From positions 1 through 21,654 of the forward strand of contig JBHLLO010000050.1 in assembly GCA_048885535.1 (NCBI GenBank): a DNA stretch of 21,654 nucleotides. The letters are read 5' to 3'. The notes beneath the pieces were generated by a model that was given only the letters and a program-made list of their open reading frames with translations, did no database searches and was not told the DNA's origin. This stretch comes from Candidatus Hermodarchaeota archaeon. GTDB taxonomy: Archaea > Asgardarchaeota > Lokiarchaeia > Sigyniarchaeales > SOKP01. Both the position numbers and the translations under genes were made by a program. Positions 5,521 to 20,133 of this stretch are shown here, in pieces. Positions within the stretch are counted from its first letter, which is position 1, and the number at the start of each line of letters is the position of its first letter.

Positions 5521-7464
5521 ATGGAAAAATCTGATACGCATCGGATTGGATACTATGCTTGTCAATGAGGTATTAATATTCGCGGAAAAGTTGATTGTAA
5601 TAAATTAGTGGAGTATGCAAAAGAATTAGATGGTGTCGTAATTTCAAAACAACACAGCTTCCTTTGTACCGAGAGTGGACAAAATGAGATTATTGAGGAT
5701 ATAAATGAAAAAAAATTAAATTGTATTGTGGTATCTGCTTGAACTCCACGTACTCACGAACCTGTGTATAGAGGATCGATAGCCAAAACAGATTTAAACC
5801 CATACTTTTTCCAAATGGTAAATGTGCGCGAGCATTGCTCATGGTGTACAGAAAGCAATGAAGAAGCATTAGATAAAGCTAAGATTCTCATAAAGGCAGG
5901 TGTTGAACGAGGTAAGCGTCTTGAAGCTGTACCAATTAAGACGGTACCTGTTGAAAAAGCAAGTTTGGTTGTTGGTGGGGGAATAGCAGGTATGAATGCG
6001 GCTTTAGATCTTGCAAATCAAGGAATTAAAGTATATTTAGTGGAGAAAAACACAACTATTGGTGGCAGAATGGCAGAATTAGATAGAACATTTCCTACGG
6101 ATGATTGTGCCATTTGAATCTGTGGTCCTAAGATGCTTGAAGTAAATCGAAATGAGAATATTGAAATTCTTAGTTATTCAGAAGTAAAAAAGGTTGAAGG
6201 TTATGTAGGAAATTATGAAATAACTGTAGAAAAGAAACCTCGATATATTAACCCTGAAACCTGTAATGGATGCGGAGCCTGTGCTGAAGTATGTCCTACT
6301 TACACAACAAACTATTTTGATGAGGATTTAGGAGCAAGAAAAACAATTGATATTGCATTTGGTCAAGCTGTTCCGTTTTTATATGATATTAACAGGGAAA
6401 CTTGTGTAGAATGCTTTAATTGTGTTGACGCTTGTGAATTGGATGCTATAGATTTCAGTCAAATACCAGAAGAGGTTAAATTCAAAGTTGGAACAATTAT
6501 TATTGCCACTGGATGGGACATATATGAACCTTTTGGAGAATATGGATATGGGGAATTCACAAACGTGGTCACTCAATCTCAACTTGAAAGAATGTTAGCT
6601 CCAAATGGACCATTAGAAGGACATGTTCGGAGGATTTCTGATGATAAGAAACCTAAGGAGATTGTTTTTATTCAATGCGTCGGAAGCCGAGATACTGAAA
6701 GAACATATTGTAGTGGCGTTTGTTGTATGCTTGCCTTAAAAAACGGAAAGTTACTAAAAGAAGAATTTCCAGGTGCTAATATTACTATTTGCTATATAGA
6801 TATTAGAACTAATGAAAAAGGTTTCGAAGAATATTACCAAAGGGCAAAAGATTCGGATATTCGAATGATTCGTGGGAAAGTGGGGGAGATTTCAGAAGAC
6901 CCAGAAACAAAAAACGTTAAAATACGTGTATATTCATCCTTAACTAATGAAATTATTAATATTGATGCCGATTTAGTAATTTTATCAACAGCAGCATTAC
7001 CTTCTAAAGGTACTCAACAAATTGCTAAGGTTTTAAACTTGGACGTTGATAAAAATGGATTTTTAACTGAATCTCATTTTGGTTTAATGCCACAAGAAAC
7101 AAAAACTAAGGGGATTTTCATTGCTGGATTTGCCCAAGGTCCTAAGGATATAGCTTATTCAGTTTCACAAGCAAGAGCGGCAGCAAGTAAGGTTGCAGAA
7201 CTAACCTCTGCTGGTGAAATTGACTTAGAATTAATTGTAGCAGAAGTAGATAAAGATTTTTGCATTTCATGTAGAAGATGCGAAAAAGAATGCCCAAAAG
7301 GAGCAATTAAGATTACGGAAAAAGAAGGAGCTATCGTTGATGAAATAAATTGTGACGGATGCGGTGTATGCGCGAGTTGTTGTCCTACTCAGGCTATTGA
7401 CATACGATATTATAGAGATCACCAGTTGTATGCTGAAATTGAGGCTCTATTAGGAGGTGATTAA
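5521..7464 (+). CDS. hdrA: Heterodisulfide reductase subunit A, selenoprotein with three UGA-Sec codons (647 aa)
   Basis: One frame from ATG 5521 to TAA 7464 with in-frame TGA at 5566-5568 (RIGYYACQUGINI), 5740-5742 (VVSAUTPRTHE) and 6115-6117 (TFPTDDCAIUICGPKM). Has the GGGIAG FAD motif, internal and C-terminal 2[4Fe-4S] ferredoxin motifs, and the CVGSR...CSGVCC cluster motif. GAGGTG SD at 5500-5505. Confidence 0.95.
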
Positions 7465-7468
7465 ATAG

Positions 7469-7909
7469 TTGGAGGATAGTTTAAAAATATTGATGTTTGC
7501 TTGTCTAAAATGAGGATATAGCGCAGCTGATTTAGCGGGAGTTTCTCGATTAAAATATACACCCTCAGTTAAAATTATAAAAGTTAGGTGCACTGGACGA
7601 ATTGATGTGAAGCACATTTTATATGCGATCAAATCTGGAGCTGATGGTGTTATGGTAGTTGGATGACGACCAGATGAATGTCAATTTAAAACAGGCAATT
7701 TCAAAGCTCAAACACATGTAGATCTAGCTAATAGAATATTAGAACGCCGAGGATTCGGGAACCAACGAATAAATCAATATTGGTTAAGTGGCGCAGAATC
7801 TGAAAAGTTAGTTAAAAGTGTTGAAGATACGGTTGAAAAAATAAGACGTATAGGTAAAAATCCTATTTACAAAATAAAATCAAAAAAAAAATCAAGCGTA
7901 GCCCCTTAG
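7469..7909 (+). CDS. mvhD: MvhD/VhuD/FlpD [2Fe-2S] subunit, selenoprotein with two UGA-Sec codons (146 aa)
   Basis: Not in the ORF track. TTG start 8 nt after a GGAGGTGA SD. Translates as MEDSLKILMFACLKUGYSAADLAGVSRLKYTPSVKIIKVRCTGRID...GADGVMVVGURPDECQF...WLSGAESEK...SSVAP*, with TGA at 7511-7513 and 7664-7666. Confidence 0.95.
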
Positions 7910-7969
7910 AATGAATCTTATAAGGAAATATTTGTTATAAGACGACTAACCATGCGTTGGTTAAGGGGT
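7901..7969 (+). promoter_or_regulatory. SECIS element (eukaryote/Lokiarchaeota-type, AUGA/GA core)
   Basis: Outer helix GCCCCTTA (7901-7908) pairs with TAAGGGGT (7962-7969). The core ATGAA (7911-7915) sits opposite CGAC (7943-7946). A perfect 8-bp upper stem TCTTATAA/TTATAAGA (7916-7923/7935-7942) is capped by the loop GGAAATATTTG, which contains AAA. It lies immediately 3' of two UGA-containing genes. Confidence 0.85.
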
Positions 7970-8016: not shown

Positions 8017-9513
8017 ATGGTTCAGGTTGTGAATGAGAAATCATTCGGTGGAATTTCTCCGAAAAATTTAATTGAAGCAACATATAAAGCTTCGGAAAAT
8101 TTCCAAATTAGAGCATTTTACGAATCGAAAGATGAAATCTTGAAAGCTGCAAAATACTCTGAGAGAGAGTTTTTTGAGATAATAGATGCCATGTTAGACG
8201 CTGAAACTGAACGAAAGATTGTATTAGAGACGCTTAGAGGAAATAAACCCTTATTTTTAGAAGAAATAATAAAAATTGTAAAAGAGTTTCCACCTGATAA
8301 TGTTATACGGGATATAATCTATTTAAAGGAACAAGGATTTATTGAGGAACACATAGAGGTTAAAACTAAAATAGTTATAAAAAAAGTAAAAGGGGAAGAA
8401 AAGGAAGTAGAAGAAAAAGAATATTTCTATAGATATGAAGTAAAGGAATTACCAGATGATTTCATAGAAAATTATTTAGACCCTATTTCAATTGTTTTTG
8501 ATGCTGGTGTATGCTGCCAATGCGGATGGTGTTCCTCAATTTGCCCAGTCAACGCCATTGAAGTCACAGCAGACACTTTAGAAATTGATGATGAAAAATG
8601 TATGAAGTGTGGTTTATGCTTTACCGTTTGCCCCCGTACTTTTTCAATAGATCAAGCCTATAAAAGCATTAAGCAATTAGATAAATATCTTACCTGGTCA
8701 GAGAAAATTGGTGCCTATCTAAATGCTTATTCAGGAGCTACGACCAAAGACGCAATAAAAAAAGTGAAACAAGATGGTGGAGTTGTTACATCCTTGTTAG
8801 AATATCTATTAGAGAATAAGTTGGTGGATGCGATCATTGCTGTGCAACATTCAAAAGATTTATGGAGACCAGAACCAGTAATAGTTGATAATGTAAAGGA
8901 TTTATATAAGACTGGTGGTACTAAATATGCAAATGCTGCCTCGTTATCAATTATCGAAGCTGCTAAAAAGTATGAGAGAATAGCAGTTGTGGGGGTTCCT
9001 TGTATGATGAAAGCAATTGAGAAAGGAAATCTCTTTCCAAGTGGGTTACCTTTTTTTAAAAACATAAAATATACAATTGGATTGTTTTGTATGGAATCTT
9101 TTCCTTATGAAGGAGTAGTACAGTTAACTAAAGACAAATTCGATAAGGATATTAATGATTTAGTAAAAATGAATATTGATAGTGGAAAGTTCATAATTAA
9201 TTTAAAATCTGGTGAAAAATTAGATATAGATTTGAAAGAAGTTAAATCTTATGCTCGTAATAATTGTCATTATTGTGAAGATTTAACTTCTGATTATGCT
9301 GATATTTCAGTTGGTTCAATTGGATCCCAAGGAGGATGGTCTTCTGTTATTACTCGAACAAAGGAAGGAGATGAAATTTATCAGGGCGCAGTAGATGCTG
9401 GATTAATTGAATCTCAGAGTCTAAAAGAAATTAAGCCAGGATTAGGTCTTTTGGAGCGAATATCAGGATTAAAAAGAAAAAATTGTAAAATAATTGAACT
9501 TAAAAAGGAGTAA
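8017..9513 (+). CDS. FrhB/FdhB-family coenzyme F420 oxidoreductase beta subunit with N-terminal helical/winged-helix-like extension and ferredoxin domain
   Basis: Motifs CCQCGWCSSICP, CMKCGLCFTVCP, QDGGVVTSLL, GTKY, VGVPC, IGLFCME and CHYCEDLTSDYADISVGSIGS. The start was moved to ATG 8017 because the track start at 7957 lies inside the SECIS. Confidence 0.88.
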   Translation: MVQVVNEKSFGGISPKNLIEATYKASENFQIRAFYESKDEILKAAKYSEREFFEIIDAMLDAETERKIVLETLRGNKPLFLEEIIKIVKEFPPDNVIRDIIYLKEQGFIEEHIEVKTKIVIKKVKGEEKEVEEKEYFYRYEVKELPDDFIENYLDPISIVFDAGVCCQCGWCSSICPVNAIEVTADTLEIDDEKCMKCGLCFTVCPRTFSIDQAYKSIKQLDKYLTWSEKIGAYLNAYSGATTKDAIKKVKQDGGVVTSLLEYLLENKLVDAIIAVQHSKDLWRPEPVIVDNVKDLYKTGGTKYANAASLSIIEAAKKYERIAVVGVPCMMKAIEKGNLFPSGLPFFKNIKYTIGLFCMESFPYEGVVQLTKDKFDKDINDLVKMNIDSGKFIINLKSGEKLDIDLKEVKSYARNNCHYCEDLTSDYADISVGSIGSQGGWSSVITRTKEGDEIYQGAVDAGLIESQSLKEIKPGLGLLERISGLKRKNCKIIELKKE

Positions 9514-10729: not shown

Positions 10730-11890
10730 ATGAGTTTACTAAAAAAGTGTTATCAATGCGGACGTTGTAGTGGTGTCTGTCAATTAAGTAAAGTGCAAAA
10801 GTTTCCTCCAAGTAGGATAATTCAATTAATCTTAGAAGGGTTTGAGGATAAAGTATTGAATTCAGGTGTTTTATGGGATTGCCTTACGTGTAATCAATGT
10901 TTAAAAGATTGTCCTGAGAAAATCAACTTTGCAGATATAGTTAGAATTGCAAGGTATAAAATGAGACATGAAGCAAACCAAAAATCCGATGAACTCATTG
11001 CTCATAAGGGAATTTACACAACAATAGCAGAAATAATGAGTAGACCATATATAACTCCAGAAAGATCATTGGATTGGGTACCGAAAGGCTGTAAAATATC
11101 CGATAAAGGAGAGCTTCTTTATTATGTAGGATGTCTGCCTTTTTATGAATATGAATTTGAAGATTCAGATACTATAGCTAAAAGTACTCTAAATCTTTTA
11201 TGTCAAATTGAACAGAAACCAATAGTAGTTTTAAAAGAAGAAAGTTGCTGCGGTCACGATCTTTACTGGGGACAGGGCAAATTGAAGACGTTTATCAAAT
11301 TAGCGAAGAAGAACTTGGAGAAATTCGAAAAAGCGGGAGTCTCCACCATAATAACCGCATGTGCAGAATGTTATCGAACCTTTAAAGTTGATTATCCTAA
11401 TATTTTTGAGAACTTTTCAACTAAATTTAATGTAAAACATATAATTGAATATATTTACGATAAATGGAAACAAAATAAAATATTTTTTAAGAAACCAAGT
11501 AAAAAAGATATAGATACAACATTCACGTATCACGATCCTTGCAGATTAAGTAGATTTTTACCAGAGGACAATAATTTAACTGAAAAAGTAAGAGAAATTT
11601 TTAATGAATTAACAAAGCTAGGTTTTAATTTTAAGGAAATGAAACATAATAAGCAAAATTCTCTCTGCTGTGGAGTAAATTCTTGGATGAACTGTAATGA
11701 GAGATCTAAAGCCCTTAGATATAAACGTATGCTAGAAGCAAAATCAGCAGCATCCTTAATGATTACTACTTGTCCTAAATGTGAAATTCACTTTAAATGT
11801 CTACAGAATGATTTCGAAGATATTGCAAATATTAAGATTTTGGATTTTTCAGAATTCATAATAAACAACCTAGAAATAGTTGAGGGATAG
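10730..11890 (+). CDS. HdrD/GlpC-like Fe-S protein (HdrC-type 2[4Fe-4S] domain plus two CCG domains); start may be ATA at 10643
   Basis: Motifs CYQCGRCSGVC and WDCLTCNQCLKDCP, then YYVGC...CCG...TACAEC and YHDPC...CCG...TTCPKC. Confidence 0.88.
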   Translation: MSLLKKCYQCGRCSGVCQLSKVQKFPPSRIIQLILEGFEDKVLNSGVLWDCLTCNQCLKDCPEKINFADIVRIARYKMRHEANQKSDELIAHKGIYTTIAEIMSRPYITPERSLDWVPKGCKISDKGELLYYVGCLPFYEYEFEDSDTIAKSTLNLLCQIEQKPIVVLKEESCCGHDLYWGQGKLKTFIKLAKKNLEKFEKAGVSTIITACAECYRTFKVDYPNIFENFSTKFNVKHIIEYIYDKWKQNKIFFKKPSKKDIDTTFTYHDPCRLSRFLPEDNNLTEKVREIFNELTKLGFNFKEMKHNKQNSLCCGVNSWMNCNERSKALRYKRMLEAKSAASLMITTCPKCEIHFKCLQNDFEDIANIKILDFSEFIINNLEIVEG

Positions 11891-11894
11891 TAGA

Positions 11895-14800
11895 ATGGAA
11901 GGATCTGTCTTAGTGATAGGTGGTGGTATAGCAGGAATTCAAACTTCATTAGATTTAACAGAGTTAGGATTCAAGGTCTATTTAGTGGAAAGAAATCCAT
12001 CAATCGGTGGCCGTATGGCACAACTTGATAAAACTTTTCCAACAAATGATTGTAGCCTTTGTATCTTGGCTCCTAAAATGGTGGAAGTCTTTAGAAATCC
12101 AAATATAGAACTCATGACTTATCATGAAGTATTAAGTGTATCTGGGAAAGTTGGAGACTTCACAATTAAAATTTTAAAAAAGCCAAGATATATAGATGAA
12201 ACGAAATGTAAGGGATGTGGCGATTGTTCTCAACGTTGTCCAAAAATTGAGGTTCCAAATTTATTTGATATGAAGTTAGGCAAAAGAAAATCTGTATACA
12301 TCCCCTTCCCGCAAGCTGTGCCTCCTATTTATCTAATAGATCCTGAAATCTGCCTTAAATTGACTAAAGGGGTATGCGGTGTATGTGAGAAAGTCTGTGA
12401 AGCTGAAGCAATTGATTACGAACAGAAACCTCAAGAAATTAACATTAATGTGGGAGCAATTGTGGTTGCAACTGGGTTTGATATGCCCGCAGAAGAATTA
12501 TCATCCAGATGGGGTTATCATTATAAAAATGTAATTAGTGCTTTAGAATATGAAAGAATTTTATGTGCTTCAGGACCATTCGGAGGGCACGTCTTACGTC
12601 CAAGTGATGAAACTGAGCCTGAAAAGATTGCTTTTATACAATGCGCTGGTTCAAGAGACTTACATGAAAATGTCCCTTATTGCTCAAGTGTTTGTTGTAT
12701 GTATATCAGTAAGGAAGCTATTATCACTAAAGAACATTCAGAAAAGGCAAAATGCTTTGTCTTTAGACACGATATTCGAGCTTATGGTAAAAACTTCTAT
12801 GAATTTACCCAGAGAGCGCAAAATGAATATGGTGTAGAATATTTTCAAACTAAGATAAGTCGAATCGAAGAGGATCCAGATACTAATGATTTGATTATAC
12901 ACTATGAAGATTTGCAAACAGGAGAGTTTAAGGATTTCAGAAGTAATTTAGTAGTATTAGCTACACCATTAGTTCCATCAAGTGGTACAGTTGAATTGAG
13001 CAAAAATGTAGGTATAGAATTAGATAAATATAATTTCTTTAAAGAAAGATCATATTTTAATAAATCACTGTCATCAAAGGAGGGTGTGTTCTTATGTGGT
13101 TTTTGTCAAGGACCAATGGATATTCCAGAAACCGTAGCAGATGCAAGTGGAGTAGCATCCCAAATTGCTTTACTACTAAATTCTGTAAAGTTCAAAGCCA
13201 TAAAAGAAAAAATTAGGGAGAAAGCTGAATTAGAAGTTAAAATCTCTGATGAACCTCGAATCGGGGTTTTAATTTGTCATTGCGGGATAAATATTGGAAA
13301 ATATATTGATGTCTCTGGAGTTGTGGAATATGTGAAAACTTTACCTTACGTAGCTCACTGTGAAGCCAATCTATATTCTTGTTCAAGTGATTCTCAAGCA
13401 CGAATTAAAGAAGTGATTGAGGAAGAAAATTTAAACAGGTTTATTGTTGCTTCTTGTACTCCTCGAACTCATGAAGCCTTGTTTCAAGAAACCTGCCAAG
13501 AAGCCGGTTTGAATAAATACTTGTTCGAGATGGTTAATATTCGCGATCAATGTTCTTGGGTTCATATGAATGAGTACGAATTTGCTACTGAAAAAGCCAA
13601 AGATTTAATTAGAATGGCTGTCGCAAAAGCTCGTTTATTGAAACCTCTCAAAGAAGCACTATTAGACATAACTCCAACAGCCTTAATAATTGGTGGTGGA
13701 GTTTCAGGTATGACTGCAGCTTTAAATATCTCTAATCAAGGATTTAAAGTATTTTTAGTAGAAAAAGAAAAGAAACTAGGAGGAATTTTGAATAACTTAA
13801 ACATTTTATACCCTGTTCATGAGGATGCTTCAAAATTTCTGGAGAATATAATAAGTAAAGTAAAAAGCAACAAAAACATTGAATTATTTTTAACCTCTAA
13901 AATTGAAAGTATAAAAGGTTATATTGGAAATTATGATGTTGCAATTATTGACTCAAAACAAAAAGTTCATAATTGTAAAATTGGAACTATTATAGTCGCA
14001 ACAGGAGCCCAAGAATTAAAACCAAATGGTATTTTTCAATACGATGAAAAAAACAAAAACGTAATTACTCAACTCGAATTGGAGGAGAAATTAAAAAGCA
14101 AAAATGTATCATGGTTAGATAAAATTGAAAGAATAACGGTTATTTTATGCGTAAACTCTCGGCAAAAAGAAGGAATAACATATTGTTCTAATGTTTGCTG
14201 TGGAGTAGGTATTAAGAATTTAAGTTTATTAAAGGAATTAAAACCTGAAATTGAGATTGTCGTTCTTTATAGAGATTTGCAAATGGCTAAGAAAGAATTT
14301 GAAGATTATTATCGAGAGCGTCGAAAAAATGCAATATTTCTTAGATATGATTTAGAAAGATTACCAAAAATCAAAAAAGTCAATAATAAAGAGGAAAAAT
14401 ATAAAATTAGTTTATTTGATACTAATTTACAAGAAGATATTGAATTTGATACAGATTTAATAATACTGTCAACTCCTATGATTCCTGATAGTAACTTAAA
14501 AGAGTTAGCAAAAATGCTTAAAGTACCATTAGATAAGAATGGATTTTTCTTAGAAGCCCATGTTAAACTTAGACCTTTAGATTTCGCAACTGACGGAATA
14601 TTTCTAAGTGGTTGCGCTCAATGGCCGAAAAATGTTCAAGATGCAATTGCTCAAGCTAATGGTGCTGCTGGAAGGGCTAGTAGATTTTTAAGTGCGAAAA
14701 CTATAACAACTTCAGGATTAATAGCTGAAGTAAATACAGGCAGATGTATTGGATGCGGAAAATGTGAATCTGTTTGCCCATATAACGCTATTGAACTTAA

Positions 14801-14978
14801 AGAAGTATTAATGGAGTTTGAGGAAATTAGCATAAAGGTAGCAAAATCGTTCATTAACACAGCATTATGTAAGGGTTGCGGTACTTGTGCGGCTACATGT
14901 CCAAACGGAGCAATTTCAGTTAAGCATTATGATTTTGATCAAATATACGCTATGATCGAATCTTATTTATTAGAATGA
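11895..14978 (+). CDS. hdrA: Large HdrA-like flavoprotein with two FAD modules (Cys-containing)
   Basis: Two FAD motifs (GGGIAG and GGGVSG), TFPTNDCSLCILAPKM, an internal CHCG...CTPRTHE...NIRDQCSW module and ferredoxin motifs. ATG 11895 follows a GAGGGA SD and matches the start of the paralog at 17365. Confidence 0.92.
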   Translation: MEGSVLVIGGGIAGIQTSLDLTELGFKVYLVERNPSIGGRMAQLDKTFPTNDCSLCILAPKMVEVFRNPNIELMTYHEVLSVSGKVGDFTIKILKKPRYIDETKCKGCGDCSQRCPKIEVPNLFDMKLGKRKSVYIPFPQAVPPIYLIDPEICLKLTKGVCGVCEKVCEAEAIDYEQKPQEININVGAIVVATGFDMPAEELSSRWGYHYKNVISALEYERILCASGPFGGHVLRPSDETEPEKIAFIQCAGSRDLHENVPYCSSVCCMYISKEAIITKEHSEKAKCFVFRHDIRAYGKNFYEFTQRAQNEYGVEYFQTKISRIEEDPDTNDLIIHYEDLQTGEFKDFRSNLVVLATPLVPSSGTVELSKNVGIELDKYNFFKERSYFNKSLSSKEGVFLCGFCQGPMDIPETVADASGVASQIALLLNSVKFKAIKEKIREKAELEVKISDEPRIGVLICHCGINIGKYIDVSGVVEYVKTLPYVAHCEANLYSCSSDSQARIKEVIEEENLNRFIVASCTPRTHEALFQETCQEAGLNKYLFEMVNIRDQCSWVHMNEYEFATEKAKDLIRMAVAKARLLKPLKEALLDITPTALIIGGGVSGMTAALNISNQGFKVFLVEKEKKLGGILNNLNILYPVHEDASKFLENIISKVKSNKNIELFLTSKIESIKGYIGNYDVAIIDSKQKVHNCKIGTIIVATGAQELKPNGIFQYDEKNKNVITQLELEEKLKSKNVSWLDKIERITVILCVNSRQKEGITYCSNVCCGVGIKNLSLLKELKPEIEIVVLYRDLQMAKKEFEDYYRERRKNAIFLRYDLERLPKIKKVNNKEEKYKISLFDTNLQEDIEFDTDLIILSTPMIPDSNLKELAKMLKVPLDKNGFFLEAHVKLRPLDFATDGIFLSGCAQWPKNVQDAIAQANGAAGRASRFLSAKTITTSGLIAEVNTGRCIGCGKCESVCPYNAIELKEVLMEFEEISIKVAKSFINTALCKGCGTCAATCPNGAISVKHYDFDQIYAMIESYLLE

Positions 14979-14997: not shown

Positions 14998-15435
14998 ATG
15001 CCAAAAGCAAAAGCAAAGGTGAAAGGTCAAGAATTTAACCCTGAAATCTTAGTATTCTGTTGTAACTGGTGTAGTTATGCTGGAGCGGATTTAGCAGGGG
15101 TTTCAAGGTTCCAATATCCTCCCAATATGAGAATAGTAAGGGTTATGTGTTCTGGAAGAGTCGACCCTGCATTTGTTTTAAAGGCTTTAAAGGAAGGAGC
15201 TGATGGAGTATTAATCACAGGTTGTCATATTGGTGATTGTCATTATATTTCCGGAAATGAGTATGCTAAAGAAAGATTTGAAAGATTGCATAATGTTATT
15301 ATTAAACAACTTGGAATTAATGAAAAAAGAGTAAGGTTAGAATGGGTCTCAGCGTCAGAAGGGAAGCGGTTTGCTGATTTAATTACTGATTTTACAAATC
15401 AGATAAAAGAGTTAGGACCTTTAAAAGTACTATAG
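14998..15435 (+). CDS. mvhD: MvhD/FlpD [2Fe-2S] subunit (Cys-containing)
   Basis: Motifs FCCNWCSYAGADLAG, RVMCSGRVDP, GADGVLITGCHIGDCHY and WVSASEG. AAGGAG SD upstream. Confidence 0.95.
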   Translation: MPKAKAKVKGQEFNPEILVFCCNWCSYAGADLAGVSRFQYPPNMRIVRVMCSGRVDPAFVLKALKEGADGVLITGCHIGDCHYISGNEYAKERFERLHNVIIKQLGINEKRVRLEWVSASEGKRFADLITDFTNQIKELGPLKVL

Positions 15436-17364: not shown

Positions 17365-20133
17365 GTGGAAGGTTCAGTTTTAGTTATTGGTGGGGGCATC
17401 GCTGGAATTCAAACATCGTTAGATCTAACGGAATTAGGGTTTAAGGTATTTTTAGTTGAGAAGGAACCATCAATTGGAGGTCATATGGCCCAATTTGATA
17501 AACTGTTTCCAAAGGATGATTGTAGTCTGTGTATTTTAGCTCCAAAGATGGTTAGTGTCTATAGAAATCCCAACATTGAACTTTTTACATTATCTGAAAT
17601 AAAAGAAGTAAAAGGAAAAGTTGGAAATTTCAAGGTAACTATTGTAAAACGTCCTAGATATGTTGATGAATCCAAATGCAAGGGTTGTGGTGATTGCGCT
17701 AAGCGCTGCCCAAAGATAGAAGTTCCAAATTTATTTGATATGAATTTAGGGAAGAGAAAGTCAATATATATGCTTTTTCCTCAAGCAACTCCTCCTGTAT
17801 ATATGATCGATCCTGAATTATGTTTATATTTAAATAGAGATGTATGTGGAGTGTGTAAAAAGGTATGTAAAGGGGATGCAATTGATTTTGAACAAGAATC
17901 TCAAGAAATTGAGATAGAAGTTGGAGCAATTGTAGTAGCGACTGGATTTGATATGCTTGGTAAAGAGCTCCCCCAAAAATGGGGTTATCAATATAAAAAT
18001 GTAGTTAATGCTTTAGAGTATGAAAGGATACTGTCTCCTACTGGACCTTTTGGACCTCAAATCCTAAGACCTAGTGATGAAGTTGAGCCTGAAAGTATTG
18101 CTTTTGTTCAATGTGCAGGCTCTGGGTATTTAAAAGAAAATGTACCCTATTGTTCCCGTGTTTGCTGTATGTATGTTGCTAAAAATGCTGTGTTAAGTAA
18201 GAATTATGCAGAAAATACTCAAATAACTATATTTAGACATAATATTCGAGTATTTGGAAAAAATTTTTATGATTATACTAAAGCTGCACAAGAAGAATAT
18301 GAAATTAATTACATAAATTCAGAAATCAATTCTATTGAAGAAGATCCCGAAACTAATGATTTGATCATTAATTATGATGATTTAAAAACTGGAGAAAGCA
18401 ATTTATCTTTCCGGGTTAAACTTGTTGTGTTAGCTCCTCCTCTAATTCCTTCAAAAGGTGCCTCAAATTTAGCAAAGATTTTAGGAATTGAACTTGATGA
18501 TTTTGGTTTTTTTAGAGAAACATCGTATTTTAATAAATCGCTTTCTTCTAAAAATGGAATATATCTATGTGGTTTTTGTCAGGGTCCTATGAATATCTCT
18601 GAAACTGTGGCTCATGCTAGTGGAGTAGCTTCACAAGTTGCAACCTTATTAAATTCGGTTAGATATTCCTTGATACGGGAAAAGGAAATTGATATACGTC
18701 CTGAAGAAGAAATCATTGATATTACACCTAGAGCCTTAATAATTGGTGGGGGTATTTCAGGTATGACTGCTGCATTAAATATTAGTAGTCAGGGATTTGA
18801 AGCTGTTATCGTAGAAAGAGAAAACATGTTGGGGGGAAATTTGAATCGGTTACACCAAATATATCCAATAAAGCAAGATCCTTCATCTATCGTTAATGAA
18901 CTAAGAGAAAATGTGGATACCGCGAATAACATCGAAGTATTTCTAAATTCTAAAATTGAGGAAGTGAATGGTTCTATTGGAAAGTATGAAATAGTTATTA
19001 GAAAAACTGACTCTGAAATAAAAAAGATGATTGTAGGAGTTATAATTATAGCTACTGGAAGTCAAGAATTTAAACCTTATGGTTTCTTCCAATATGGTGA
19101 AAACTTTAAAAATATTCTTACTCAAATGGAGTTAGAACAGAGACTAAAAAGTAATGATTTTTCCTGGCTTAAGAATATAAATCATTTCACAACAATTATG
19201 TGTGTTAATGCAAGACAAAAAGGAGGATTCGCATATTGTTCAAATATTTGTTGTAGTAATACTATTAAAAACATTAATATTCTAAAGGAACTAAAACCAG
19301 ATCTTGAGGCGGTTGTGCTTTTTAGGGAACTCCATATGGCTAAAAAGGAATTTGAGGATTATGTAAGTAAAAGGAAGAAGTTAGCTAACTATTTAAAATA
19401 CGATCTAGAAAACATACCAGAGATTATCAACATTAAAGAAAAACCTGAGAAATTTGAAATTAAATTAAGGGATGCCCAAAATACTGAAAAAAGTATAAGC
19501 TTTAAAACTGATTTGATAATTTTATCAACTCCTATGATTCCACCTGAAGGAATAGACGAATTAGCAAATATATTAAATGCCCCCTTAGATAAATTTGGGT
19601 TCTTTATAGAAGCTCATAAAAAGTTACGACCATTGGATTTTTCAGCTCATGGTGTTTTTGTTTGTGGGTGTGCTCAATGGCCAAAAAATATTCAAGACTC
19701 AATTTCAGAAGCGAATGGAGCTGCAGGAAGAGCAAGCAGGTTTTTAAATATAAGAAAAATATCTACAACAAAATTAGAATTGCTTTCATTTTTACTTTCA
19801 ATAGAATGCTTTTTCAAGGATATCAAAGTGAATGCTGAAAAATGCAACGGGTGTGGAAGATGTGTAGAGGTTTGTGAATTTAAGGCAATTTCTCTTAATG
19901 ATCTAAAACAAGAATATGAGGATGTTAGTATTGCTACAAAGAAAGCCTTAATAAATTCAGCTATTTGTAAGGGATGCGGAAAATGTTCAGCAACATGTAG
20001 ATTAAAAGCAATATATCCGCGACATTATGACTTTAAACAAATCTCAGCTATAATTGACCCTTATTTTCTAGGAAAAGTGGAATCTGAACAGATAACCTCT
20101 AATAGTGAAGAATTCTCTCTAATTAAAAGTTAA
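17365..20133 (+). CDS. hdrA: HdrA-like two-FAD-module paralog lacking the internal CHCG Fe-S module
   Basis: Collinear with and highly similar to 11895-14978; both begin MEGSVLVIGGGIAGIQTSLDLTELGFKV. GTG start with a GGGGA SD. Confidence 0.9.
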   Translation: MEGSVLVIGGGIAGIQTSLDLTELGFKVFLVEKEPSIGGHMAQFDKLFPKDDCSLCILAPKMVSVYRNPNIELFTLSEIKEVKGKVGNFKVTIVKRPRYVDESKCKGCGDCAKRCPKIEVPNLFDMNLGKRKSIYMLFPQATPPVYMIDPELCLYLNRDVCGVCKKVCKGDAIDFEQESQEIEIEVGAIVVATGFDMLGKELPQKWGYQYKNVVNALEYERILSPTGPFGPQILRPSDEVEPESIAFVQCAGSGYLKENVPYCSRVCCMYVAKNAVLSKNYAENTQITIFRHNIRVFGKNFYDYTKAAQEEYEINYINSEINSIEEDPETNDLIINYDDLKTGESNLSFRVKLVVLAPPLIPSKGASNLAKILGIELDDFGFFRETSYFNKSLSSKNGIYLCGFCQGPMNISETVAHASGVASQVATLLNSVRYSLIREKEIDIRPEEEIIDITPRALIIGGGISGMTAALNISSQGFEAVIVERENMLGGNLNRLHQIYPIKQDPSSIVNELRENVDTANNIEVFLNSKIEEVNGSIGKYEIVIRKTDSEIKKMIVGVIIIATGSQEFKPYGFFQYGENFKNILTQMELEQRLKSNDFSWLKNINHFTTIMCVNARQKGGFAYCSNICCSNTIKNINILKELKPDLEAVVLFRELHMAKKEFEDYVSKRKKLANYLKYDLENIPEIINIKEKPEKFEIKLRDAQNTEKSISFKTDLIILSTPMIPPEGIDELANILNAPLDKFGFFIEAHKKLRPLDFSAHGVFVCGCAQWPKNIQDSISEANGAAGRASRFLNIRKISTTKLELLSFLLSIECFFKDIKVNAEKCNGCGRCVEVCEFKAISLNDLKQEYEDVSIATKKALINSAICKGCGKCSATCRLKAIYPRHYDFKQISAIIDPYFLGKVESEQITSNSEEFSLIKS

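Follow-up and report, generated by a model that had tools for sequence, protein, structure and literature searches.

The selenoprotein system closest to the one described here is the HdrA-VhuD gene tandem of Lokiarchaeia with its shared selenocysteine insertion sequence (SECIS) element, the lokiSECIS (Mariotti et al. 2016, PMC4989117; ISME J 2024, PMC11227280; both cited here from partial text). According to the 2016 paper, HdrA carries several selenocysteines (Sec), including the canonical position near residue 200, its stop is never UGA, and one SECIS stands after vhuD alone. The element consists of AUGA, a stem of 9 base pairs (bp), an 11-nucleotide (nt) loop that is A-rich at its start and closes with an ultraconserved G, and GA, and it lies near the stop codon. 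The 2024 paper extends the description to 227 Asgard genomes. The Lokiarchaeial pair has also been used to argue that the eukaryotic SECIS descends from the archaeal VhuD SECIS. Here we analyze a 21,654-nt stretch of archaeal DNA, which as a whole we call the window (GenBank assembly GCA_048885535.1, contig JBHLLO010000050.1, forward strand). We are highly confident that positions 7469-7909 of the window are the vhuD/mvhD gene of a Lokiarchaeial genome (phylum Promethearchaeota), encoding a [2Fe-2S] adaptor protein, and that both in-frame UGA codons are read as Sec via a eukaryote-like SECIS.

The locus matches the Loki tandem, as far as the available text of the two papers describes it, in the following ways: hdrA is directly upstream on the same strand, VhuD has about 150 amino acids with two Sec, HdrA has multiple Sec, including one near position 200, and ends in TAA, never TGA, and a single SECIS follows vhuD only, next to its stop, with the same AUGA/9/11/GA geometry. 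It departs from the Loki norm in nothing essential: the apical loop starts with GGAAA instead of a run of A, and a TAG stands 2 nt before AUGA. A locus of this kind, with this gene order, number of Sec and SECIS geometry, is already in print (PMC4989117; PMC11227280), and ours is at most a further orthologue. It adds nothing categorically new, being one more Lokiarchaeial HdrA-VhuD pair, and is a clean example of a single signal that apparently serves two cistrons with five UGA codons between them. The three-armed form of the SECIS, presented below, goes slightly beyond the published text descriptions.

With TGA read as Sec (U), the frame at 7469-7909 (+ strand) yields 146 residues from a TTG start to a TAG stop (7907-7909) and contains exactly two in-frame TGA codons. 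These encode Sec15 (7511-7513), in a C-x-x-U motif (FACLKUGY), and Sec66 (7664-7666), in a G-U-x4-C motif (VGURPDEC). Under translation table 11, the only open reading frame (ORF) of at least 60 amino acids between the hdrA stop (7464) and the next listed ORF (7957) is a 60-codon frame on the opposite strand (7450-7632), an artefact of ORF listing that overlaps the conserved and selected vhuD frame. An earlier model-made note on this DNA, the sequence-only reading, had already described it as such, alone in an apparent 490-nt gap. The same reading had proposed a full MvhD frame with a TTG start and a strong Shine-Dalgarno sequence, and this proposal holds. The Shine-Dalgarno-like GGAGGTGA (7453-7460, + strand) lies 8 nt 5' of the TTG at 7469 and overlaps the final hdrA codons. 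The codon aligned to this TTG is ATG in 22/22 congeneric orthologues, always behind a GGAGG-type run (exactly GGAGG in 20 of them), which supports 7469 as the vhuD start.

The reading had suggested searching the read-through translation with the FlpD/MvhD hidden Markov model (HMM). Pfam FlpD (PF02662) matches residues 7-129 over the entire profile (1-123/123; E = 8.6e-44; 148.9 bits, compared with a gathering score of 22.3), and the U residues fall on Cys columns. Because this match is a single full-length stretch, HMM coverage is unbroken at both TGAs, whereas a break there had been named in advance as evidence against the call. The family has five conserved Cys columns (C-x2-C ... C ... C-x4-C), which in the window protein are C12, U15, C41, U66 and C71. 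All five align to Cys in PDB chains and in a Cys-only MvhD paralogue in the window (14998-15435, + strand, located after a 1032-codon fused HdrA-like gene at 11880-14978), and all are kept in 23/23 orthologues. In a BLASTP alignment with this paralogue (37% identity, E = 1e-35), U15 corresponds to the second Cys of CNWC and U66 to the first Cys of GCHIGDC, bearing out the pairing of CLKU with CNWC and of GURPDEC with GCHIGDC in the earlier reading. The top PDB match is VhuD of Methanococcus maripaludis (9sfi chain K, F420-non-reducing hydrogenase subunit delta; E = 1.5e-36), which has X at precisely the positions aligned to U15 and U66. The available text of PMC4989117 likewise gives VhuD two Sec. 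The earlier statement that methanococcal VhuD is a selenoprotein is therefore correct, but the locus is not of the Methanococcus type that this comparison implied: it is a Lokiarchaeial HdrA-VhuD pair with a eukaryote-like SECIS. Sequencing error at the TGAs was considered and rejected, as contigs from four public DNA runs (one study, maybe the source sample) have no differing letter at the two TGA codons; both codons are covered by two of these contigs with 0 differences.

Both UGA codons are widely conserved. We searched 41 related genomes with stops read through, 24 of them from the same genus. In 22 of the 24, the best match has 72-86% identity and exactly two in-frame TGA codons; the other two (G011 and G014) gave paralogue-level matches alone, at 42-43% identity. 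In the codon alignment of the window sequence with these 22 orthologues (n = 23; seven more distant loci, L030-L036, excluded), TGA fills both columns in 23/23 sequences and is absent from all other columns. For the 50 codons separating the two TGAs, the proportions of synonymous and nonsynonymous differences (pS and pN) are 0.652 and 0.091, and the ratio of nonsynonymous to synonymous divergence (dN/dS) is 0.064; for the 63 codons that run from the second TGA to the domain end, the corresponding values are 0.732, 0.116 and 0.045. The sole relaxed part of VhuD is its lysine-rich C-terminal tail (0.54). The ratios are rough because synonymous sites are close to saturation, although the contrast itself is not in doubt. 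Relaxed selection after the first TGA, the other outcome that was to count against a selenoprotein, was thus not seen; strong purifying selection continues past both TGAs.

A second set took one genome per species among named metagenome-assembled genome (MAG) records and gave 41 loci. Their labels are Promethearchaeota/Promethearchaeia (including Loki_b31 and Loki_b32), one Odinarchaeota-labelled MAG and several "uncultured archaeon" entries. VhuD has U at both positions in 41/41, but these loci are not a second independent sample, because the genomes probably overlap the congeneric search set. No frameshifts or other stops after the TGAs were seen in the 23 + 41 loci. Among more distant relatives, five (L030, L031, L033, L035 and L036) have Sec/Cys or Cys/Cys at the two columns, with Cys at the Sec66 column in L030, L031 and L033; this is the usual interchange of selenoprotein families. 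Taken together, these comparisons show both UGAs at conserved Cys columns and maintained across species, with strong purifying selection acting on the sequence beyond them.

The lokiSECIS core (7911-7945, + strand) starts 2 nt after the TAG, with AUGA at 7911-7914 and GA at 7944-7945. Its stem pairs 7915-7923 with 7935-7943 (eight Watson-Crick pairs and an A.C at the base), and its 11-nt apical loop (7924-7934) reads GGAAAUAUUUG, closing with the expected G. AUGA, three loop A positions and the final loop G are invariant in 42/42 elements. Behind the stop, 22 of 23 congeneric loci have the arrangement AUGA-N9-N11-N9-GA with at least 8/9 pairs; in the remaining locus the loop is 12 nt long. The lokiSECIS pattern is likewise present in 41/41 named loci, with a loop of 11 nt in 38 and 12 nt in three. 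We tested covariation on the 42 aligned elements, 37 of which are distinct. Among the distinct sequences, 94.0% of cells pair, compared with 39.6-60.7% when partners are slid; five of the nine pairs show changes on both sides (20 cells), and the covariation score was reached by 0/500 shuffles.

A strict pattern scan of the 3.09-Mb genome gave six hits, compared with 0, 2, 0, 0 and 0 in five Markov-simulated genomes. Five of the six sit directly behind an ORF with an in-frame TGA: the window vhuD, an HdrA-VhuD pair on contig C18, a VhuU-like ORF on contig C57 and two small ORFs without a Pfam family. On the window contig (21.7 kb), the strict pattern, the only one scanned for, has a single hit, at 7911. 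Of 23 congeners, 14 stop vhuD at the UGA inside AUGA; the window gene stops at a TAG that lies earlier by one frame-shift of register. An Rfam scan of the whole window at E values up to 10 found no SECIS family and nothing near 7900; the Rfam SECIS models thus miss this element, just as published SECIS models miss the lokiSECIS according to the available text of PMC4989117. The element shares with eukaryotic SECIS the AUGA...GA quartet, a helix I below and a helix II above it, and unpaired A in the apical loop. It differs from them in its shorter helix II, its place between the cistrons of an operon and an extra hairpin on the 3' strand between GA and helix I.

The same element may also serve the gene upstream. 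hdrA (5521-7464, + strand) has 647 codons, a TAA stop and three in-frame UGA codons, encoding U16 (5566-5568), U74 (5740-5742) and U199 (6115-6117); only 4 nt separate it from vhuD on the same strand. Its family match is to the NCBIfam model HdrA2, at 777.9 bits (cut-off 1100). ORF finders using table 11 break hdrA into two pieces, 5764-6117 and 6133-7464. Across 42 aligned HdrA sequences, the columns of residues 16, 74 and 199 hold U in 38/38, 39/39 and 41/41 sequences with a letter there. Unlike many of its Loki relatives, the window HdrA has Cys at a fourth such column (residue 49), which is U in 25 of 40 sequences and C in the other 15, the window sequence among them. Of the 42 genes, 37 stop at TAA, five at TAG and none at TGA. 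The five UGAs of the two genes lie 245, 398, 1794, 2169 and 2343 nt upstream of AUGA. Since there is a single element on the contig, we infer, as was proposed in 2016, that one SECIS serves all five (two in vhuD and three in hdrA) on one hdrA-vhuD transcript. Both vhuD UGAs would be decoded as Sec by tRNA-Sec(UCA) and an archaeal SelB-type factor, directed by the one eukaryote-like SECIS that begins 2 nt past the TAG, and the same element would also direct decoding of the three hdrA UGAs 1.8 to 2.3 kb away, so that a single signal would account for five Sec codons. At this locus, standard gene callers miss 490 nt and break hdrA into pieces, and Asgard energy-metabolism genes are therefore under-called unless Sec decoding is modelled.

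The full SECIS appears to be a three-armed junction (7901-7969, + strand). Helix I pairs 7901-7906 with 7964-7969 (GCCCCU/AGGGGU), so that its 5' strand is the last two vhuD codons, and a third arm pairs 7947-7952 with 7958-7963 around the loop UGCGU (7953-7957). The minimum-free-energy fold of the window region includes the third arm. In a joint search for a hairpin after GA plus a helix pairing the 18 nt before AUGA with sequence past that hairpin, helix I and the third arm were found together in 42/42 loci. Helix I has 4 bp in two loci, 5 in three, 6 in 26, 7 in six and 8 in five. The third-arm stem has 3-7 bp, and its loops are mostly 3-5 nt long, with G and C columns that vary little or not at all. 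Helix I shows covariation between its strands, as in ACCCCU/AGGGGU (8 loci), ACUCCC/GGGAGU (7 loci), AGCUCC/GGAGCU, AACACCU/AGGUGUU, UCCUCC/GGAGGA and AAAUCCCU/AGGGAUUU. With each locus's own partner, helix I has a mean weighted score of 16.0, compared with 12.1 +/- 0.5 when 5' strands are swapped among loci (maximum 13.3 of 100 swaps) and 9.0 +/- 0.5 for shuffled 5' strands. In the window, an alternative register with an 8-bp helix I scores equal to the one given here, and the third-arm register was picked by homology to conserved CC...GC...GG columns. The third arm is present in 5/5 credible SECIS of the genome and absent from the sixth, chance-like hit. RNAalifold, run on a plain MAFFT alignment of the extended SECIS, recovered the main stem alone, because linker lengths vary. 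The three-armed topology may be akin to what is called a k-junction.

The available text of PMC4989117 and PMC11227280, figures and supplements aside, contains no mention of a junction of helix I with a third arm, although the latter paper models a "lower stem" for the SECIS. We lean towards the view that the vhuD SECIS is a three-armed junction rather than a simple stem-loop, built of a G+C-rich helix I, the AUGA/GA kink-turn core with its main stem, and a small GC-loop hairpin between GA and helix I. With such a fixed, compact fold, one element could act without an SBP2-type protein on five UGAs that are spread over two cistrons and lie up to 2.3 kb away. A reporter system is described for Methanococcus (PMC9622424, available text).

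The genome (3.09 Mb in 112 contigs, 30% G+C, 91.6% complete) encodes machinery for Sec. A tRNA-Sec with anticodon UCA scores 61.2 bits (cut-off 47), SepSecS lies 219 nt from it and scores 385 bits, above its cut-off, and SPS/SelD, also above its cut-off at 186 bits, has one in-frame TGA of its own. TGA closes 194 of the 1279 stop-to-stop frames of at least 300 codons, TAG closes 175, and two window genes end in TGA; because TGA closes so many long frames, it is an ordinary stop in this genome and is recoded locally alone. The SPS gene itself (contig C80, 11143-11997, - strand) is of the Sec-SPS kind with its one TGA, as reported for Loki. Its SECIS was not picked up by the strict lokiSECIS scan of the genome, which fits the different SPS-type element in the available text of PMC4989117.

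Several observations weigh against our interpretation. The best NCBIfam model for the vhuD product is VhuD (NF045873, positions 4-130/132), but its score of 154.2 bits is below the curated cut-off of 215, so by the NCBIfam criterion the window VhuD is not an equivalog of the methanococcal protein. The SelB-like GTPase, on the same contig as tRNA-Sec, scores 230 bits (cut-off 242) and the PSTK-like gene 166 bits (cut-off 290.5); both matches are strong despite scoring below the NCBIfam cut-offs. In the SECIS, the ninth stem position, A.C in the window, is unpaired in 17 of 37 distinct sequences, and the loop begins with GGAAA (3/5 A), compared with the AAAAA preference reported for Loki. The action of one SECIS on hdrA across a cistron boundary is so far a published hypothesis, going by the available text of the literature. 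Finally, our case for Sec decoding is made from DNA sequence, and among 18 public runs no RNA run is listed as carrying this sequence.

How else could two in-frame UGAs in an mvhD-like gene be explained? The gene could be a decaying pseudogene, a former Cys-type mvhD paralogue with two nonsense mutations, and indeed the region has no covering table-11 ORF and a Cys paralogue sits 7 kb away. Yet the TGAs occupy identical columns in 23/23 and 41/41 orthologues even though synonymous sites are nearly saturated, dN/dS stays near 0.05 beyond each TGA, the frame is free of frameshifts and of further stops, and a covarying SECIS is conserved; we therefore give decay almost no credence. Genome-wide reassignment of TGA to a standard amino acid (codes 4 or 25), with no Sec involved, would account for read-through of TGA in several genes of this genome. 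It is hard to square with TGA closing long frames about as often as TAG and ending two window genes, with in-frame TGAs that fall on Cys columns only, and with the presence of tRNA-Sec, SepSecS and SPS, and is in our judgment exceedingly improbable.

It might also be that the UGAs act mainly in termination or regulation, or are read by near-cognate tRNAs (as Cys or Trp), so that the full-length Sec protein would be rare or selenium-dependent and the Cys paralogue would do the routine work. Our case is built on sequence features rather than on measured decoding, and Methanococcus swaps Sec and Cys isoforms with selenium supply (PMC13518236 and PMC11097638, available text), both of which lend this idea some plausibility. 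However, the Cys paralogue is only 37% identical and stands behind a different, fused HdrA-like gene, and every orthologue keeps the TGAs exactly and keeps the SECIS. Because TGA has been retained although a single transition would give a Cys codon, and because the SECIS is kept in all orthologues, Sec itself appears to be selected; we regard a mainly terminating or near-cognate UGA as very unlikely, and decoding of both vhuD UGAs as Sec as the best explanation.

The protein would be a [2Fe-2S] adaptor of about 16 kDa that, docked on HdrA, transfers electrons singly from an input module to its bifurcating flavin (FAD). This is the role described for VhuD/MvhD, whose [2Fe-2S] adaptor sits on HdrA and feeds the bifurcating FAD (PMC6019823 and PMC13518236, available text). 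For the window VhuD, homology and the adjacency of hdrA suggest both docking on HdrA and binding of a [2Fe-2S] cluster. The earlier reading placed both Sec within conserved [2Fe-2S]-binding motifs of MvhD. Such a cluster needs four ligands, and the family offers five conserved Cys/Sec columns; provided that no ligand comes from elsewhere, one or both Sec would be cluster ligands. The available text of a preprint (10.64898/2026.04.10.717634) describes one conserved Cys near the cluster of methanogen MvhD as a redox-active non-ligand and equates it with Sec19 in the MvhD-like BamF. We found no residue-level statement of the [2Fe-2S] ligands in the available text of PMC13518236, PMC13188914, PMC6019823 or PMC5736913.

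We also compared this VhuD with other known systems. VhuD of M. maripaludis (9sfi chain K; PMC13518236, available text) belongs to the same fold family, has Sec at the same two positions and is encoded next to hdrA. Its [2Fe-2S] cluster feeds the HdrA flavin. Unlike M. maripaludis, the host here is not a methanogen by its relatives' labels, the window has no Vhu hydrogenase genes, and the SECIS differs from the methanococcal one, which is of the GAA_A archaeal type (PMC4989117 and PMC11227280, available text). Cys-type MvhD proteins (5odc chain D, 7bkb chain F) and the paralogue at 14998 share the Pfam family and the five Cys columns, but have Cys instead of Sec at both positions and no SECIS. 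BamF, an adaptor of class II benzoyl-CoA reductase (bioRxiv 10.64898/2026.04.10.717634), resembles the window protein in being an MvhD-type [2Fe-2S] adaptor with Sec near the cluster (Sec19). It is bacterial, more than 100 residues longer and has one Sec; this comparison is by description only, from the available text.

Downstream of the SECIS lies an FrhB-like gene (8017-9513, + strand) whose N-terminal part is of the 2x[4Fe-4S] type (NF006807, 273 bits; cut-off 269). The start listed for it, TTG 7957, falls within the third arm and helix I of the SECIS, so ATG 8017 is the likelier start; the start ATGGTTCA also comes after the SECIS in the orthologue L024. The gene order after the SECIS is this FrhB-like gene, a second FrhB-like gene, an HdrB/C-like CCG protein, the 1032-codon fused HdrA-like gene and the Cys-type MvhD. 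No hydrogenase genes occur in the window; a VhuA-like gene and a VhuU-like Sec ORF are on another contig, C57. Given this gene order and the lack of a hydrogenase in the window, the partner is no less likely to be an FrhB-type input module than a Vhu hydrogenase, and the FrhB-like gene may be the electron-input partner of VhuD, a suggestion drawn from gene order. The Cys paralogue at 14998 may work independently of selenium, as a counterpart analogous to Vhc of Methanococcus. The window also has a second long fused double-HdrA-like gene (17365-20133, + strand; 922 codons), whose N-terminus is near-identical to that of the one at 11880-14978 (MEGSVLVIGGGIAGIQTSLDLTELGFKV...). The window total is three HdrA-type genes, counting the Sec pair.

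Elsewhere in the genome, contig C18 (L097:288-2843, + strand) holds a second HdrA-VhuD pair with two Sec in each protein; it has a lokiSECIS of its own at C18:39040, and its vhuD stop is the UGA of the AUGA core. On contig C57 (L096:52-1356, + strand), the VhuA-like gene encodes a [NiFe] hydrogenase large subunit without its C-terminal part and is followed by a short VhuU-like ORF with one Sec (...VYCULSCAAH) and then by a lokiSECIS with 9/9 stem pairs. A 160-codon ORF on contig C58 (L094:606-1088, - strand) has no Pfam family and contains Cys-Sec-Sec (GCUU, two adjacent TGA); a perfect lokiSECIS stands 11 nt past its stop, and it adjoins a 2x[4Fe-4S] ferredoxin gene. Relatives of this ORF occur in 32/41 genomes (its own included) from four families of the order. 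Of the 43 matches listed, all but a 42-residue fragment contain at least two in-frame TGA. The ORF differs from the CxxC-type Prx-like family in the available text of PMC4989117. Lastly, a 67-codon ORF on contig C15 (L095:1266-1466, + strand), also without a Pfam family, has an N-terminal membrane helix and a GGGUPC motif. Its stop is the UGA within the AUGA core of a SECIS with a third arm (ACCCU GCA AGGGU), and the ORF may encode another small selenoprotein.

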